From an uncultured Gammaproteobacteria bacterium (GTDB lineage Bacteria > Patescibacteriota > Microgenomatia > UBA8517): a stretch of 64,000 bases of DNA. Shown piece after piece: positions 6,547-15,172 of this stretch; the first letter of the stretch is position 1; each line of letters starts with the position of its first letter. The notes under the pieces were generated by a model that saw only the letters and a list, made by a program, of their open reading frames with translations, was not told the origin of the DNA and did not search any database. The stretch spans positions 345,575 through 409,574 of the forward strand of contig CAZIMC010000001.1 of assembly GCA_964540475.1 (NCBI GenBank), written 5' to 3'. The translations under genes were made by a program, and so were the position numbers.

Positions 6547-7647
6547 GTGGGATATACTTCACCAACGATGGAAGAAATTAAAAAGCGTATCCAAAACTTA
6601 GTTGAGAGACTAGGCGAGACCAAAAAGCATCTAGACTTTACGGGTAAAAGAAAGCAAGTGGAAATATTGGAGTCAAAGTCTTCGGATCCAAAGCTTTGGG
6701 AAGACGCGGAAGAAGCCAGAAATATAATGCAAAATTTGTCGGACCTCAAAAAGGAATTGGATGAAGTCGATCAAATTAGTGAGGATCTGGTTACCCTTCA
6801 GGAAATGATAAATGAAGGAGTTGTGACTGACGATTTTGGAAAAGAGCTGGAAAAGCTTGAGCAGGCGTTGCGGCAGTTTGAACTTGCATCGTTTCTTTCG
6901 GATGAATACGATCGTAAAAATGCTATGGTTTCGATTCACGCCGGCCAGGGAGGAACTGAGGCAATGGACTGGAGCAATATGCTTTTTAGAATGTACGTGC
7001 GATTTGCAGAGAGAAAAGGTTGGGAGATGGTAGTTTTAGATTATAACGAGGGAGAGGAAGCTGGAATAAAAAGCGTAACATTCAAGGTCCGTGGGGCATA
7101 CGCGTATGGCTACTTAAAGGGTGAATCCGGAACCCATAGACTTGTAAGACAGTCTCCGTTTAACGCAGACAAGTTAAGGCAGACCTCTTTTGCACTGGTT
7201 GAGGTATTGCCCGAACTTGAGGAAAAAGACCTCCCCGATATTGACATTAAAGACGACGACATAGATATTCAGTTTTTTAGAAGTTCATCTCAGGGTGGAC
7301 AGAACGTTCAGAAAGTCTCAACGGCAGTACGGATTATGCATAAACCCACGGGAATTGTAGTTACTGCTCAATCAGAACGCTTTCAGGAGCAGAATCGCAA
7401 GAATGCAATGAACCTTCTTCGCTCAAAACTCTGGATAAGACAGAAAGAGATGGAGAAACAGATGAGACGAGATATCAAGGGGGATTATCGTCCGGCCTCT
7501 TGGGGGACACAAATACGTTCTTATGTACTTCACCCGTACAAGATGATTAAAGATTTAAGGACGGACGTGGAGACTGGGAATACTGAAGCAGTCTTAGATG
7601 GGGAGATAGATGAATTTATCGAGGCGGAAGTAAAAATTGGGTCTTGA
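6547..7647 (+). CDS. prfB: Peptide chain release factor 2
   Basis: This 366-aa ORF carries the RF2-specific 'SPF' tripeptide ('RQSPFNAD') and the GGQ motif ('SSQGGQNVQKVSTAVRIMHKPTGIVV'). The ORF is contiguous with no internal CTT TGA frameshift site. Confidence 0.9.
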   Translation: MGYTSPTMEEIKKRIQNLVERLGETKKHLDFTGKRKQVEILESKSSDPKLWEDAEEARNIMQNLSDLKKELDEVDQISEDLVTLQEMINEGVVTDDFGKELEKLEQALRQFELASFLSDEYDRKNAMVSIHAGQGGTEAMDWSNMLFRMYVRFAERKGWEMVVLDYNEGEEAGIKSVTFKVRGAYAYGYLKGESGTHRLVRQSPFNADKLRQTSFALVEVLPELEEKDLPDIDIKDDDIDIQFFRSSSQGGQNVQKVSTAVRIMHKPTGIVVTAQSERFQEQNRKNAMNLLRSKLWIRQKEMEKQMRRDIKGDYRPASWGTQIRSYVLHPYKMIKDLRTDVETGNTEAVLDGEIDEFIEAEVKIGS

Positions 7648-8093
7648 TATTTTTCACCTTAAAAGTAGAATCAATTCCAACAATGACCGCAGAACTACGA
7701 GATTATGGAGCAATTCGTGATCAACTGATAGCCGATGAGGGGGAGAGGAACAGGGATCTTTATGAGTATTCGGGAGACCTTTTACGAAATACTGGCATTG
7801 TCCCGCTTTCAATTTGGCCCGAACCTAATAGTGTGGTAAGGGGCATCATTTCAGGTGAGGTAGACTACAACAAGCTTTTTGATGGCAGTGATGAAATGTA
7901 TTCAAACGAATTTCATAAGGGCGGTGTGTCTGGTGATCAAGAGGCCTTTGTCAAATGGCGAGAGGGTCAGGAAATGCTTTGCGAAGCTTTAGACTTAACA
8001 CCGTGTCTAAAGGGGCGGTGTCCATTATATGTTGCAACTGATACCAAACCTCCCATTTGTCGTGAATTTAAGATCGTATTTCGTAACTCCTAA
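7644..8093 (+). CDS. Hypothetical protein (Cys-containing C-terminus)
   Basis: This 149-aa ORF overlaps the prfB stop by 4 nt. Its C-terminus is 'CEALDLTPCLKGRCPLYVATDTKPPIC'. I recognise no family, and the true start may be Met at about 7683. Confidence 0.35.
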   Translation: MIFFTLKVESIPTMTAELRDYGAIRDQLIADEGERNRDLYEYSGDLLRNTGIVPLSIWPEPNSVVRGIISGEVDYNKLFDGSDEMYSNEFHKGGVSGDQEAFVKWREGQEMLCEALDLTPCLKGRCPLYVATDTKPPICREFKIVFRNS

Positions 8094-8129: not shown

Positions 8130-8603
8130 TTGTTGTTTATGCAGCCACAAGGCATTGTCAGTCAGCCAGCGGGTACTTCTCGTGGAATGAGCAGCAGCTC
8201 GGTTAGAGATAAGAAAAAGGCAATTGTTACTGCCGGACTTTTTTTGGCAGTCATTATTGCAGGAATCTTTACGGGTAAAAGCCTGGCGGGGGAGGGAAGT
8301 TCAACAGCCCCCAGCGGTAATACTGCGCCTGGAGCTACAACCAGCCTTCGAGAGGCAGGAATTTCTGATGAAAGCACTTTCAGAGATAGCGCAGAAGGAA
8401 CTCTAAGAGAAGGTGGAATTGAGGGCGACGGCACGCACCACCTGGAACGCCCAGGGGGAGCTTCGCAAAATGTGTATTTGACATCCACTGTTATTGATCT
8501 TCAAAGTTTTGTAGGAAAGAAAGTTAAAGTATGGGGTGAAACAATCTCCGCAAAACGAGCCAGTTGGCTAATGGATGTCGGTAAAATTTCTGTTACAGAT
8601 TAG
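8130..8603 (+). CDS. Hypothetical membrane-anchored protein
   Basis: This 157-aa ORF has a single N-terminal TM ('AIVTAGLFLAVIIAGIF'), a Gly/Ser/Thr-rich disordered segment, and a small C-terminal domain. Confidence 0.35.
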   Translation: MLFMQPQGIVSQPAGTSRGMSSSSVRDKKKAIVTAGLFLAVIIAGIFTGKSLAGEGSSTAPSGNTAPGATTSLREAGISDESTFRDSAEGTLREGGIEGDGTHHLERPGGASQNVYLTSTVIDLQSFVGKKVKVWGETISAKRASWLMDVGKISVTD

Positions 8604-8656: not shown

Positions 8657-9316
8657 TTGCCCATGCTCAAGTTAAGTAACGTAACAAAGACCTTTGGAAA
8701 TATTAAGGCACTGGAGTCTATTTCCTTCGAAGTTGAAAAGGGTGAGTTTGTCTTTCTAATGGGCCCTTCAGGAGCTGGAAAGACTACAATCTTAAGACTG
8801 ATACTTAGAGAATATCTCCCAGACAGTGGTGAGATTATTTTTGACGGGAAAAATGTCGCACAAATAGCAAGACGTGATGTCCCCAAGCATAGACAGAAAA
8901 TTGGTGTAGTCTTTCAGGATTTTAAGCTTCTTGCCGAGAGAACAATTAGAGAGAATATCGAGGTTGTGCTTGCAGTTACGGGTATTAAACAGACGGAGTG
9001 GAAAAGCAGGGTTGATGAAGTTCTTGGCATGGTCGGTCTACTCGAAAGATCAGAACTGTTTCCATCTCAGCTTTCAGGTGGTGAGCTGCAAAGAGCTGCT
9101 TTGGCCAGGGCTTTGGTTGTTAACCCAAAAATTGTTTTGGCTGATGAACCAACAGGCAACCTAGATCATGATACCGCTGAATCAATTGTAAAATTGTTTG
9201 AGGCTATCAATAAAGAGGGAAAAACTGTTATTATGGCCACACACAATAAAGGTATTGTTGATAAACTCAAAAAGCGTGTGGTTTATGTTGAGGGAGGTAA
9301 AATAAAGGAAAAATGA
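8657..9316 (+). CDS. ftsE: Cell division ATP-binding protein FtsE (ABC ATPase)
   Basis: This 219-aa ORF has Walker A 'GPSGAGKTT', the ABC signature 'LSGGELQRAALARAL', Walker B 'ILADEPTGNLD' and an H-loop 'ATHN'. A permease gene follows it directly. Confidence 0.85.
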   Translation: MPMLKLSNVTKTFGNIKALESISFEVEKGEFVFLMGPSGAGKTTILRLILREYLPDSGEIIFDGKNVAQIARRDVPKHRQKIGVVFQDFKLLAERTIRENIEVVLAVTGIKQTEWKSRVDEVLGMVGLLERSELFPSQLSGGELQRAALARALVVNPKIVLADEPTGNLDHDTAESIVKLFEAINKEGKTVIMATHNKGIVDKLKKRVVYVEGGKIKEK

Positions 9317-10227
9317 GTATACACATAAAAACCGCCTTTGATTACATTAAACGATCGCCATTTCAGGCCATGGCTGCCATAACGGTGCTAACTTTGACTT
9401 TCTTTGTGGCTACAATACTGGCTGTTCTGGTTTACTCATCATCGAATGTTTTAAGGTATTTTGAAACACGGCCTCAGGTAATTGCATTCTTAAAGTCCAG
9501 CGTAACAGACGAGCAGGTAGTGGGTTTACAGAATAAGCTTACTGGTGACGGACGAGTTAAGAGTGTAAAGTATGTGCCGAAAGAAGAAGCTTTGGCTATC
9601 TACCAAAAAGCAACAGCAGACAATCCACTCTTGGGCGAACTTGTAAGTCCTTCGATTTTTCCGGCGTCACTTGAATTTTCGGTTGTTGAACTCGCCTTTG
9701 CTACCGATGTGATTGGGGAAATTGAGCAAGACGAGGCTGTTGAGTCAGTTGGTTTTACTGCCTCGCTGGGTGGGGAATCAAACATTGACGATGTTATAAC
9801 ACGCCTTAAGAACGTAACGTTGTACGTGCGCTACGGTGGTTTGGCGTTTGTGGGTTTTTTGGGAGCAGTTTCTCTTCTGGTTCTTCTAGTAATTATTGGA
9901 ATGAGACTGGCAACACGAAAAGAGGAAATCGAAATTCTTAATTTAGTTGGTGCAACGGCAGGTTTTATCAGGAGCCCGATTGTCTACGAAGCTTTTATAT
10001 ACGCAACAGCCGGTGTTGTTTTGGGTTGGGTAATGGCATTTACAATCTGGCTTTACGCAACGCCTGCAATCTTACAGTATTTTGGTGAAATACCGGTCCT
10101 ACCGGCGGGAACTACTAGCTTTTTCACACTCTTTTTAATAATTTTAGGAGCGGAGCTTCTTGTTGGCATCACTCTTGCGCTTATCGGGAGCAGCCTTGCT
10201 CTATCACGAGCTCTTAAGAACCGATGA
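9313..10227 (+). CDS. ftsX: Cell division permease FtsX
   Basis: The ORF overlaps the ftsE stop. It has an N-terminal TM, a large extracytoplasmic loop and three C-terminal TMs (FtsX topology). The block 'LNLVGATAGFIRSPIVYEAFIYATAGVVLG' resembles the FtsX core. Confidence 0.75.
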   Translation: MSIHIKTAFDYIKRSPFQAMAAITVLTLTFFVATILAVLVYSSSNVLRYFETRPQVIAFLKSSVTDEQVVGLQNKLTGDGRVKSVKYVPKEEALAIYQKATADNPLLGELVSPSIFPASLEFSVVELAFATDVIGEIEQDEAVESVGFTASLGGESNIDDVITRLKNVTLYVRYGGLAFVGFLGAVSLLVLLVIIGMRLATRKEEIEILNLVGATAGFIRSPIVYEAFIYATAGVVLGWVMAFTIWLYATPAILQYFGEIPVLPAGTTSFFTLFLIILGAELLVGITLALIGSSLALSRALKNR

Positions 10228-11381
10228 GAATCAAAATTATTCTGGCAGTTACTGCCACCCTTATTTTACTGGGTTTGCAGTTTTTTCAAGGTGCAAATAA
10301 TGTTTCAATTCAAGCAAAGACGCTTGAGGAAATTCAAAAAGAAATTGAAGAGTATCAAAATGAACTAGCCAGGCTTTCTGTTCAATCTAAGACTTTAGCT
10401 AATCAAGTGGCGCAATTTGATGCACAAATTAGATTAACTACATTGAAGATTTCCCAAACTGAGGAAAAGATTCTTCTCTTGGGTGGCAGGATTGACCAGC
10501 TTGAAAATTCACTGGACTCACTTACAAATGCCTTTTCTACAAGGGCGGTTGAAACCTATAAGATGAACAGACTTGGAGATGGTCTGTTTTTGCTTTTAGG
10601 GGCGGATGGCATAAACGAAGTGGTTTCCAGATATCACTACCTTCAAAGAATCCAGCAATCCGATCAGGATCTTTTGCAGCGACTTCAGAGGGCACAGACA
10701 ATTTATGTTGGTGAAAAAGAAGATCAGGAGGTTCTTCAAAAAGAGCTCGAGAAGCAAAAAGCAGAGCTGGATGATCAGAAAGCAGCTAAAGCCTTTCTAT
10801 TGCAAGTTACCCGGAATGATGAAGCTAAATACCAACAACTATTAGCTCAGGCAAGGTCTGAATATGAAGCTATTCAGGCAATTATAGCCGGGAAAGGGCA
10901 GGAGACCGAGGTGGGGCATGTTAGTCAGGGAGCAAGAATCGCCTCCATCATTCAGGGGGCGTCATGTAACTCAAGCGGAGCGCACCTTCACTTTATCGTC
11001 AGCAGCAACGGTATAACTCAAAATCCTTTTGCCCATCTTAAAGATGGCATTACTAACGAGAATTGCACTGGATCTTCCTGTGGCAGCGGCAATGGCGATC
11101 CTTTTAACCCAACAGGCACTTGGGATTGGCCAATTAGCCCAACAATACGCTATTCACAAGGTTATGGCGAAACTTGGGCAGTTAGAAACACATGGGTAGG
11201 AAGAATTTACAGGTTTCATAATGGGATTGATATAAACAGCTCCACATCCCCTGAAGTTCGGGCAGTTAGAAGCGGGACATTATACAGGGGAAGTTATAAT
11301 GTTGGTTGCGCGCTCCGGTATGTGAGGGTGGCGCATGATGACTCAGACCTTGATACCTTCTATTTACATATTAATTATTAG
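10224..11381 (+). CDS. Coiled-coil M23 family metallopeptidase (EnvC/PcsB-like FtsEX partner) with permuted M23 motif order
   Basis: The ORF overlaps the ftsX stop. It has a signal/TM, about 200 aa of heptad-rich coiled coil, and then M23 motifs 'SSGAHLHFIVSSNG' (HxH) and 'RFHNGIDI' (HxxxD), in that order. Confidence 0.7.
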   Translation: MRIKIILAVTATLILLGLQFFQGANNVSIQAKTLEEIQKEIEEYQNELARLSVQSKTLANQVAQFDAQIRLTTLKISQTEEKILLLGGRIDQLENSLDSLTNAFSTRAVETYKMNRLGDGLFLLLGADGINEVVSRYHYLQRIQQSDQDLLQRLQRAQTIYVGEKEDQEVLQKELEKQKAELDDQKAAKAFLLQVTRNDEAKYQQLLAQARSEYEAIQAIIAGKGQETEVGHVSQGARIASIIQGASCNSSGAHLHFIVSSNGITQNPFAHLKDGITNENCTGSSCGSGNGDPFNPTGTWDWPISPTIRYSQGYGETWAVRNTWVGRIYRFHNGIDINSSTSPEVRAVRSGTLYRGSYNVGCALRYVRVAHDDSDLDTFYLHINY

Positions 11382-11396
11382 AGTTAACATAAATCT

Positions 11397-12248
11397 ATGA
11401 AATTAGCACTAAAATTATTTTGCGGGATGTGCTTCGGATTTGTTGCTTTGGCAAGGGCTCCATCGTTAGTCAGTGCTCAAGTGGTTGTAAATGAAATTAA
11501 TCCATTTGAAGAGTGGGTTGAGCTTTATAAGACTCAATCAGGAGAAGTGAGCATGGAAAATTGTACAATATATTTCCACAACTCAACTTCTTCTTCTCAG
11601 AATAAAGCTTTTACTCCAGATGACAAATTTTTGGAAAATGAAAATTACAAAAAAATAGACACTGGTGCAACTTGGCTCGATAATAATAGTGACACAGTTA
11701 TTCTTGAATGCGATTGGGGTCAAAACTCTGTATCATATGGCACTGGGGGTGTGGTGGTTAAACCTCCTAATGGTAAAACTGTGGGACGATACCCAGACGG
11801 AGGAAGCGGTATTTATGTGTTGGATAGCCCATCGCCTTTAGCAGCTAACGCACTTCCGCCATCACCAACACCAACTCCCACTCCCACACCGACACCTACG
11901 CCCACACCCTCTCCTTCTCCTTCCATTGCTCCAACCCCTTCTCCTAAGCCCTCCCCTTCCCTTAAGCCTGCGCTTTCTCCCAGTCCGACAGCTACAGCTT
12001 CAGCCTCTCCCTTGGGTACAACATTTGATGAAGAAGAAGCCTTAGGCCCAAGAGGTGAAACATTGGGGATTGGAACATCTGCTTCAGCTTCACCAATGGT
12101 TGCTGGTGCCGAAACATCGAGTAGAAAATTTTCGCCGGTTGCAATTATATTAATAGTTGGCGGACTATTACTTGTGGGCTTTGCATTATTTATGTTCTTT
12201 AAGAGCTATCAAAAAGATAAACAAACTGGTGGACCTACCCCTGTATGA
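11397..12248 (+). CDS. Lamin-tail-domain (LTD) protein with Pro/Thr/Ser-rich linker and C-terminal TM anchor
   Basis: It has a signal peptide. The LTD-like start '[32 protein letters not shown]' is followed by the linker '[37 protein letters not shown]' and a C-terminal hydrophobic helix '[21 protein letters not shown]'. Confidence 0.5.
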
Positions 12249-13870: not shown

Positions 13871-15172
13871 ATGAATTTATTTCAAAAGAAAGTCGCTTCT
13901 GCAATCGCTTCAGGTGCAATGCTTCTTAATTTAGTGGTACCGGCATTAGCTCAATCCACTACATTAGTCATTACTGGAAACGGTGCAGATTCTGAAAACA
14001 AGACAGACGTCAAGGTTACTACCTCGACGACAGTTACACAAAATAACGATGCAAACATTAGCAACAACGTAAACTCAAGCGCAAACACTGGTAATAATAC
14101 AGCTAGCAGAAATACTGGTGGTGATGTTTATGTTGGTACTGGAGACGCAACATCTGTTGTTTCAGTTGCAAACACTGCAAACAGCAATCAAGCAGACATC
14201 GACGGATGCTGCGGTAGTGATGTTGAGGTGCTCATTGGTCAAAATGGAGCCGACAGTAAAAACGATGCCAAACTGAAGCTCGAAAATACTGTTTGGGTAG
14301 ACCAAAACAATGATGCTAGTTTGCAAAACAACGTCACCTCCAATACAAACACCGGTGGAAATCGTACAAACAGAAATACTGGTGGTGATGTTGCCATCGA
14401 AACAGGAGATGCATTATCTGCGGTAAGCATTGAGAACAGTGCAAACTACAACTCGGCTAGAATTGGCGGAGGCAGTGGTAGCTCACTAAGTATGTGGATT
14501 CTTGAAAATGGTGCAGACACCAAAAACAAGATCGACCTTAAGTTTGAGAACTTGCTGGGAGTTAGACAATATAACGACGCAAATGTTTCAAACAAGGTTA
14601 ATGCTGACGCAGAAACAGGCGACAACAAAGCAAACAAGAATACCGGTGGCGAAGTATTTATCGGCACAGGTGATGCAGAAGTTGGAGTCTTAGTTGACAA
14701 TTTAGTCAACTTCAATTGGGCAGACGTAGAGTGCGACTGCTTGATGGATGTACTGGCTAAGATTGCAAAAAATGGCGATGAATCCAAAAATGAGATAAAA
14801 GCCAACCTGTCTGATACCAGATATGTTGCTCAAGAAAACGATTTCTCATGTGGAAAAGGTGGTTACGGATTGCCTTCAATTCTTTCATTACTCTTGGGTA
14901 AGAAGAAATCAGGAGGAGATTGTAACGACATAAACGCCTATGCCGGCACCGGTGATAATACCGCCAAGGCAAATACTGGTGAAGGTGACAGTGACCCTGC
15001 CATCGAAACCGGTAACGCAAGTGTCTTTGTTGAAGTTGAGAACACAGCCAATTCCAACGAAGTTGGAGCGGGTAGTGGCCCATCCTGGGAGTTTCCTCTT
15101 CCTGGAGGCTTTAGTTTCAACTTAAACATTTCCTTTAGCTTGGCACAATTATTGGCCGCTTTGGGACTTTAA
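13871..15172 (+). CDS. Secreted Asn/Thr/Gly-rich tandem-repeat protein (paralog 1), putative surface/fibre protein
   Basis: It has the SD 'gaaaggaggtga' and a signal peptide 'MNLFQKKVASAIASGAMLLNLVVPALA'. It contains at least 5 degenerate ~80-aa repeats of the form 'GNGADS.N...V.Q.NDA...NNV.S.ANTG.N.A.RNTGGDV.I.TGDA..V..V.N.ANSN'. Cys pairs (GCCG, CDC, C...C) lie between repeats, and the C-terminus is hydrophobic. Confidence 0.8.
   Translation: MNLFQKKVASAIASGAMLLNLVVPALAQSTTLVITGNGADSENKTDVKVTTSTTVTQNNDANISNNVNSSANTGNNTASRNTGGDVYVGTGDATSVVSVANTANSNQADIDGCCGSDVEVLIGQNGADSKNDAKLKLENTVWVDQNNDASLQNNVTSNTNTGGNRTNRNTGGDVAIETGDALSAVSIENSANYNSARIGGGSGSSLSMWILENGADTKNKIDLKFENLLGVRQYNDANVSNKVNADAETGDNKANKNTGGEVFIGTGDAEVGVLVDNLVNFNWADVECDCLMDVLAKIAKNGDESKNEIKANLSDTRYVAQENDFSCGKGGYGLPSILSLLLGKKKSGGDCNDINAYAGTGDNTAKANTGEGDSDPAIETGNASVFVEVENTANSNEVGAGSGPSWEFPLPGGFSFNLNISFSLAQLLAALGL
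13960..15060 (+). repeat. Degenerate ~240-nt (~80-aa) tandem coding repeats; similar repeats continue in the paralogs at 15640-17100, 17590-18330 and 19250-19750
   Basis: The protein-level periodicity is the 'NTGGD...TGDA' unit. At the nucleotide level some repeats share identical 21-mers, for example 'agaaatactggtggtgatgtt' at 14108-14128 and 14372-14392. Confidence 0.6.

Follow-up and report, generated by a model that had tools for sequence, protein, structure and literature searches.

A circularly permuted M23 peptidase domain in a coiled-coil protein encoded directly after ftsE-ftsX in a Microgenomates-type bacterium

The window analysed here is the whole stretch of 64,000 nucleotides taken from contig CAZIMC010000001.1, and its subject is an open reading frame (ORF) of 385 amino acids (aa) at 10224..11381 on the + strand, which encodes a coiled-coil protein ending in an M23 peptidase domain whose two halves stand in swapped order. 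Read from the sequence, the ATGA at 9313-9316 overlaps the ftsE TGA stop with the ftsX ATG, and the ATGA at 10224-10227 overlaps the ftsX TGA stop with the ATG of the hydrolase gene; ftsE, ftsX and the 385-aa ORF form a compact operon on the + strand. The stretch at 10890-11381, in which a preliminary description had proposed a circularly permuted M23 domain downstream of FtsEX, corresponds to residues 223-385 plus the TAG stop of this protein, and an identical copy of the protein is present in the protein collection that we searched (P0001). The genes and the parts of the protein are as follows.

8657..9316, + strand: ftsE, ATP-binding cassette (ABC) ATPase (Pfam ABC_tran, E = 7.7e-37)
9313..10227, + strand: ftsX, extracellular domain plus permease domain (Pfam FtsX_ECD, E = 6.6e-12; FtsX, E = 1.2e-8)
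10224..11381, + strand: the whole gene, coiled coil plus circularly permuted M23 domain, 385 aa, TAG stop at 11379-11381
10224..10295, + strand: putative hydrophobic signal peptide or membrane anchor, residues 1-24, MRIKIILAVTATLILLGLQFF (AlphaFold2 helix 2-24)
10317..10886, + strand: coiled-coil region, residues 32-221 (AlphaFold2 secondary structure, long helices 58-116 and 130-221)
10896..11057, + strand: segment 1, the canonical M23 C-terminal half, residues 225-278 (sequence comparisons with M23)
10965-10967, + strand: C248, in segment 1
10983-10991, + strand: H254-L-H256, the HxH motif, in segment 1
11058..11108, + strand: ordered Cys/Gly-rich linker between the former C- and N-termini, residues 279-295 (alignments; predicted local distance difference test, pLDDT, 96-98 in the domain model)
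11064-11066 and 11079-11081, + strand: linker C281 and C286, specific to the Woesebacteria-type subfamily
11109..11378, + strand: segment 2, the canonical M23 N-terminal half, residues 296-385, with WDWP and QGYG (Pfam match at 330-384)
11217-11231, + strand: H332-NGI-D336, the HxxxD motif, in segment 2
11307-11309, + strand: C362, in segment 2
11367-11369, + strand: catalytic H382 in YLHINY, 3 residues before the protein end, in segment 2

The hydrophobic helix at residues 1-24 probably serves as a signal peptide or membrane anchor. The coiled coil that follows scored 24.8 bits against Pfam CC_PcsB, under the cut-off of 27, and its last helical segment (residues 196-221) showed the highest conservation in the protein and leads directly into the catalytic domain, which occupies a beta-rich C-terminal region (residues 225-385).

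The swapped order was evident in comparisons with M23 models and structures. Against the Pfam Peptidase_M23 hidden Markov model (HMM), the native protein scored 36.1 bits (gathering cut-off 28.7, E = 7.6e-9) in two stretches, the better of which placed residues 330-384, the last 55 to be aligned, on positions 1-53 of the 96-position profile, that is, on the N-terminal half of the model. A phmmer search of the PDB aligned query residues 316-383 with residues 36-91 of chain 9gy1_A and query residues 233-270 with residues 102-138, again in swapped order, and residues 232-277 were matched solely by the extreme C-terminal M23 ends of the NCBIfam models for SpoIIQ and ShyC. NCBIfam yielded no specific family for the 385-aa protein, the best match reaching 31 bits against a cut-off of 500. 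As a control we joined residues 296-385 to residues 225-280, and this re-ordered sequence gave a single colinear Pfam M23 match over all 96 profile positions (1-96 of 96, 48.5 bits, E = 1e-12), together with colinear full-domain matches to 11 solved M23 structures, including 9gy1, 3slu, 6muk, 5kqb, SpoIIQ and LytM 2b44, compared to one solved structure in the PDB for the native sequence. Comparison with P0218, a canonical-order protein linked to FtsEX, behaved in the same manner: the native order yielded two swapped BLASTP alignments, and the re-ordered control a single alignment of 137 aa (36% identity, E = 1e-18) running to the last residue of P0218. The artificial junction is gap-free, the C-terminal …YLHINY and G225 fitting the loop that in canonical domains leads from the Y-x-H strand to the one after it. 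The preliminary description had expected two partial matches in swapped order to the Peptidase_M23 HMM, which is what the native protein gives; the single colinear match that it had named as grounds for rejection was obtained only from the artificially re-ordered sequence.

The motifs on which that description rested are all present, namely H254-L-H256, H332-NGI-D336, H382 in YLHINY followed by the stop, and a linker holding C281 and C286. It had also stated that the protein stops where a canonical domain would go on to the HxH motif, and the gene indeed closes with H382, three further residues and TAG, its 3' end reading TTA CAT ATT AAT TAT TAG (L-H-I-N-Y-stop). Readthrough of this TAG into a C-terminal extension was ruled out, another in-frame stop lying one codon further on. 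The protein has the Pfam score, the HxxxD and HxH motifs and the Y-x-H His of the M23 family and lacks the colinear HxxxD, Y-x-H, HxH order; judged by its sequence, it is a permuted variant of the family and not a canonical member. The swapped M23 halves, at the positions listed above, are confirmed as real and lie far beyond chance.

Homologues had been suggested as a further check, and the same permutation was found among close homologues, cluster representatives and genomic loci alike. The protein collection returned 1,658 matches, of which the best 120 made up the closest set (362-416 aa, 61-72% identical, the named ones being Candidatus Woesebacteria or Microgenomates), and separate HMMs for the two half-domains placed the C-terminal half before the N-terminal half in all 120; YLH[IV](N/D)Y forms the C-terminal end of 31 of 31 aligned homologues. 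A filter-free search of residues 223-385 against 1.84 billion representatives of 50%-identity clusters recovered 274 proteins, and the half-domain HMMs divided the best 150 of these into 79 permuted, 49 canonical, 19 fragmentary and 3 multi-domain proteins. Overall, the same models found the C-half before the N-half in 205 proteins and the N-half before the C-half in 49. We also scanned GTDB, using one genome per species and the family motif CSTGxHLHF, which under-samples the SCNSSG subtype to which the window protein belongs; relatives turned up in at least 343 species genomes, whose titles include Levy-, Gottesman-, Collier-, Woese-, Roizman- and Amesbacteria, WWE3 and Microgenomates, and the permuted order was present in 82 of the 82 loci fetched. 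The end point of the protein was nearly as constant as the order of its halves: among 81 loci with a closed reading frame the conserved His is followed by 2 residues in 77, by 3 in one and by 4 in three, and across 66 diverse full-length proteins by 2 to 9 residues, mostly 2 or 3.

We examined active-site conservation in the same 66 diverse proteins, which are 24-58% identical to the window protein. S250, H254, G298, P303, Q312, G315, H332, G334, D336, G351 and H382 are invariant, and H256 is kept in 65 of the 66, with one His-to-Asp change. In LytM-type enzymes zinc is coordinated by HxxxD and the second His of HxH, and catalysis involves the first HxH His together with that of Y-x-H. The earlier statement that the catalytic residues are intact, unlike those of EnvC, is upheld by this pattern. 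A second signature accompanies the permutation, in the form of a Cys pair with one member 4-6 residues before HxH and the other in the loop before the L-x-Y-V-x-V-x-H strand (C248 and C362 in the window protein), which all 53 diverse domains and 196 of the 205 permuted proteins carry, but none of the 49 canonical proteins. Of the 205 permuted proteins, 202 have an even number of Cys in the domain, and the window subfamily carries an additional pair, C281 and C286, in the linker. A C248-C362 disulfide may staple both halves together across the new topology.

To the question of whether the two segments assemble into one LytM-like fold, the structural models gave a divided answer. When residues 223-385 were modelled with AlphaFold2 from 53 diverse domain sequences, one compact domain with an ordered linker was predicted (pLDDT 95.1, predicted template modelling score 0.91), as the preliminary description had anticipated; Foldseek, by contrast, matched this domain model to no M23 structure and to nothing significant in the PDB or BFVD, which we attribute to the sequence-order-dependent alignment of a permuted domain. 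We read the Foldseek result as a limit of such alignment and do not take it to indicate a new fold. That the halves are two independent, degenerate half-domains was considered and rejected as unlikely, since the catalytic residues are invariant and a single domain is predicted. The LytM-like fold and its one zinc site are putative, and are proposed from the sequence homology of both halves together with the single-domain prediction. The full-length AlphaFold2 model, built on a 31-sequence alignment, reached a pLDDT of 73.9, and its top Foldseek match in the PDB was EnvC in the V. cholerae FtsEX-EnvC complex (8tzl_E, E = 5.7e-3, weak), followed by the RipA N-terminal domain, EnvC bound to the FtsX periplasmic domain (6tpi) and PcsB (4cgk), all with weak E-values and through the coiled coil only. 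Because the coiled coil dominates these matches, they are uninformative on the catalytic domain.

Linkage to ftsE-ftsX extends well beyond the window. Of about 76 loci for which sufficient upstream DNA was available, tblastn placed ftsE-ftsX directly before the gene in 69, among them members of 30-36% identity, and prfB is often found further upstream of ftsE-ftsX, as it is in the window. The protein has what is expected of the FtsEX-partner class, namely the ftsE-ftsX linkage and an N-terminal hydrophobic helix plus a long coiled coil before the catalytic domain. In known systems, FtsE binds and hydrolyses ATP and thereby moves the extracellular domains of FtsX, which deforms the coiled coil of the partner and frees an autoinhibited domain, and the freed domain is either an activator, as in EnvC, or the hydrolase itself, as in PcsB, CwlO and RipC (PMC11627006). 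The permuted domain was also seen in other settings: P0228 (894 aa), P0276 (2492 aa) and P0188 (307 aa) carry it outside the FtsEX-partner architecture, P0188 having no coiled coil, and in large multi-domain endonuclease/exonuclease/phosphatase proteins the permuted M23 domain is internal and is followed by a Cys-rich tail.

Very probably, the 385-aa protein is a peptidoglycan endopeptidase under FtsEX control whose permuted M23 domain is catalytically competent. In this Microgenomates-type (candidate phyla radiation) bacterium the gene product would serve the FtsEX division ABC complex as its extracytoplasmic partner, made up of a signal or anchor, a long coiled coil that runs antiparallel as in EnvC and PcsB, and a predicted zinc-dependent M23/LytM endopeptidase domain, the permutation of which is genuine and ancient. 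The chain would enter this domain in a surface loop just past the catalytic His of the Y-x-H strand, run through the HxH strands, an ordered linker of 24-43 residues and the HxxxD half, and stop 2-4 residues past the catalytic His. Zinc would be bound by H332, D336 and H256, and peptide cross-links would be hydrolysed with H254 and H382 as the catalytic residues. ATP-driven movements of FtsEX, passed on by the coiled coil, may then activate the enzyme at the septum, as for EnvC, PcsB, CwlO and RipC. The last coiled-coil helix appears to be fused through about 4 residues to the strand beside the catalytic His, and regulation may act on the active site more directly than through the separate restraining arm of EnvC.

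Several observations weigh against this reading. In seven loci the gene for the coiled coil and permuted M23 domain has no ftsEX within 4 kb upstream; the domain also occurs in other architectures (P0188 and P0228), so that it is not strictly tied to FtsEX; the full-length model, built on the shallower alignment of 31 sequences, is of low confidence at residues 310-332; Foldseek, as described above, recovered no M23 structure from the domain model; taxonomy labels are unreliable in many GTDB records; and the activity, the substrate bond and the regulation are all things that we infer. The loci without nearby ftsEX are L026, L027, L046, L049, L060, L061 and L065, one of which is a Roizmanbacteria genome. 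Some lineages either keep the partner gene apart from ftsEX or encode FtsEX at another site.

The closest relatives with canonical order, P0215 and P0218 (387-400 aa, CC_PcsB plus M23), are encoded directly after ftsE-ftsX on contigs with Firmicutes-like neighbour genes, and because they share this slot the permuted protein is best understood as corresponding to a coiled-coil M23 hydrolase of canonical order that is linked to FtsEX. They resemble it in length, in the CC_PcsB-type coiled coil, in the intact HxxxD, YxH and HxH motifs and in sequence, the re-ordered window domain being 31-36% identical to them along 137 aa. They differ in that the N-half precedes the C-half, that they end after NP..YL and the window protein after the catalytic His, that about 20 flexible linker residues separate the coiled coil from WP where the window protein has about 4, and that they lack the family-specific Cys pair. 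Classically, a domain becomes circularly permuted when it is first duplicated in tandem and the outer halves are then lost. The M23 domain may have taken this route from a canonical coiled-coil ancestor linked to FtsEX. Tandem M23 duplications, the presumed intermediates of a permutation, do exist outside this lineage: P0216 (658 aa) carries two canonical tandem M23 domains behind an M56 sensor domain of the BlaR1 type. No tandem M23-M23 intermediate was found in this lineage.

The permutation could also be a neutral topological accident, fixed once in the ancestor of Microgenomatia and WWE3, that left regulation and catalysis as they are in canonical FtsEX-linked M23 enzymes, and we regard this as a serious if tentative possibility. 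P0215 and P0218, with the same operon slot, coiled coil and catalytic residues, favour it, as does the recurrence of circular permutation elsewhere, since permuted topologies are described in the barrel-sandwich-hybrid (HABAS) superfold, which includes M23 (PMC11515920), and permuted NlpC/P60 families (YaeF/poxvirus G6R, LRAT-like) offer a precedent in a peptidoglycan-hydrolase domain (PMC6403190). These precedents differ from the present case, the NlpC/P60 permutations belonging to another fold and family and the HABAS ones to non-peptidase domains, whereas the window domain is M23. A neutral accident is harder to square with the C-terminus fixed 2-4 residues past the catalytic His, with a near-universal new Cys pair that goes with the permutation, and with the strongly conserved helix 196-221 fused straight to the domain. 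The fixed C-terminus, the Cys pair and the fused helix suggest structural or regulatory adaptation, although none of them proves a changed function. The stronger proposal, that the permutation is a functional re-wiring of FtsEX mechanotransmission, is doubtful on present evidence. Under it, compression or rotation of the coiled coil would gate catalysis by shifting the active-site strands with no separate restraining arm, the C-terminal carboxylate would lie 2-4 residues past the catalytic His, and the Cys pair might act as a pivot or a redox-sensitive staple.

The remaining alternatives fared worse. The domain could be a non-catalytic LytM docking groove that activates another hydrolase, for example an amidase, as E. 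coli EnvC, NlpD and DipM do, which we consider improbable. EnvC lends it some weight: this best-studied LytM-type FtsEX partner is an activator and no enzyme (PMC11627006), and EnvC in the FtsEX complex is the top structural match of the full-length model. EnvC (E. coli, V. cholerae and P. aeruginosa; 6tpi, 8tzl, 8i6s) is similar in architecture, combining a periplasmic coiled coil that binds the FtsX extracellular domains with a C-terminal LytM/M23 domain. EnvC, however, has canonical half order, a separate restraining-arm helix and a degenerate LytM domain without zinc ligands, through which it activates the amidases AmiA and AmiB; zinc ligands are wanting in EnvC-type factors generally, whereas the active-site residues of the window protein are intact, and the EnvC NCBIfam model (NF008644) gave the window protein 13.4 bits against a cut-off of 270. 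A non-catalytic role is further disfavoured because conservation of the active site across 66 diverse proteins of no more than 24-70% identity (H332, D336, H254 and H382 invariant, H256 in all but one) is hard to explain without catalysis.

The two halves might also pair across protomers and so form a domain-swapped dimer, much as PcsB is dimeric; dimerisation is known for coiled-coil FtsEX partners, PcsB among them (PMC11627006), and a monomer-only prediction is compatible with domain swapping. We judge this very improbable, as AlphaFold2 very confidently predicted an intramolecular single domain with an ordered linker, the conserved linker of 24-43 residues is long enough to close within one chain, and the permuted domain also occurs without a coiled coil (P0188). 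An artefact, be it mis-assembly, a frameshift or a pseudogene joining two M23 gene fragments, has nothing in its favour beyond the unusual order itself and merits next to no credence: an assembly or sequencing error is excluded because the swapped order is conserved across homologues, clusters and loci, with the same architecture and end point recurring in independent assemblies (120/120 homologues, 79 clusters, 82/82 loci, at least 343 GTDB species genomes), and the reading frame is intact, with start and stop codons overlapping within the operon.

Among other related systems, PcsB (S. pneumoniae), CwlO (B. subtilis) and RipC (M. tuberculosis) are coiled-coil proteins that are themselves the FtsEX-controlled hydrolases (PMC11627006), but their catalytic domains are CHAP or NlpC/P60 cysteine peptidases and not M23 metallopeptidases. 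LytM, lysostaphin and other archetypal M23 enzymes (2b44, 9gy1, 3slu, 5kqb) share HxxxD, HxH and the catalytic His and become colinear with the window domain once it is re-ordered; unlike it, they have canonical order and no coiled coil, and the window domain starts and ends in the loop past the catalytic His, its old termini being joined by the ordered linker. Full-text literature searches returned no description of a permuted M23/LytM domain, including among FtsEX partners in the candidate phyla radiation; neither Pfam nor NCBIfam has a dedicated model for the permuted family, and database names of homologues read 'hypothetical protein', 'coiled-coil' or 'CwlO-like'. What is new is the catalytic-domain topology, the attachment point of the coiled coil and the putative Cys staple; it is not a new kind of system, its parts and likely overall function being already known.

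Around the operon, the window contains the following genes.

6547..7647, + strand: prfB, release factor 2, upstream (ORF translation); context, not part of the system
7644-8093 and 8130-8603, + strand: two ORFs between prfB and ftsE, of 149 and 157 aa, no Pfam match
11397..12248, + strand: downstream gene with a weak lamin-tail-domain (LTD) match (Pfam LTD, E = 0.0012, sub-threshold); context only
13871-15172, + strand: ORF of 433 aa with a signal-like N-terminus and several internal Asn/Gly/Asp-rich repeats

Synteny with prfB was detected by tblastn in 53 of 82 related loci, and in L001, where PCRF and RF-1 Pfam matches were obtained, comparable unannotated small genes likewise lie between prfB and ftsE. 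The product of the gene at 11397-12248, which starts 15 bp past the hydrolase gene, comprises an LTD-like part, a Pro/Thr/Ser-rich (PT/PS)n spacer and, at the C-terminus, a transmembrane segment. L002 likewise has an LTD gene downstream of the hydrolase gene, as do, by tblastn, about 12 GTDB loci, a minority; in the window a VanZ-like gene comes after the LTD-type gene. The repeat module at 13871-15172 translates as …NNDAN..N.V.S.ANTG.N.A.RNTGGDV.I.TGDA…. No tRNA genes and no Rfam families at the gathering threshold were found in the whole 64-kb window, the G+C content of which is 34-45%, with a GC skew that is mostly positive throughout.

Among related loci, four of the Woesebacteria type (L013, L017, L018 and L032) are close to the window in FtsE (63-66% identity), FtsX (60-68%) and the coiled coil (53-59%), whereas their permuted M23 domains are merely 30-34% identical to that of the window, as distant as those of other classes; in these loci, therefore, either the catalytic domain has diverged far more rapidly than the other parts of the operon or it was exchanged. 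The 4-Cys SCNSSG...HINY type of the window looks like a derived subtype. Many records (L003, L005, L007-L009, L011 and many more, from binchicken and SRP co-assemblies) are titled 'uncultured Gammaproteobacteria bacterium' or 'uncultured Pseudomonadales bacterium' and show the same prfB, ftsE, ftsX, coiled-coil and permuted-M23 synteny as named Microgenomates genomes; the taxonomy in their titles seems to be wrong or a placeholder.

Few modules of peptidoglycan hydrolases and their regulators have been studied as much as M23/LytM domains, with lysostaphin, LytM, EnvC, NlpD, ShyA and SpoIIQ as examples, and the permuted form would interest specialists in cell-wall hydrolases, FtsEX and protein topology. 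For annotation, current HMMs detect half a domain and Foldseek none. For enzyme engineering, M23 lysins with new termini may be possible. For protein evolution, the family offers a natural permutation that is clean and datable, that can be set against a canonical protein from the same operon slot, and that has acquired seemingly compensating features, namely a putative Cys staple, an ordered linker and a fixed C-terminus. The permuted form appears to be the standard FtsEX partner of a class-level group of the candidate phyla radiation (Microgenomatia plus WWE3), with at least 343 species genomes, and with a coiled coil that joins the catalytic domain beside the active site it may serve as a natural experiment on the mechanical control of a hydrolase by FtsEX. 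Should the re-wiring prove true, it would represent a distinct control of division hydrolases, specific to a large lineage of ultrasmall bacteria.

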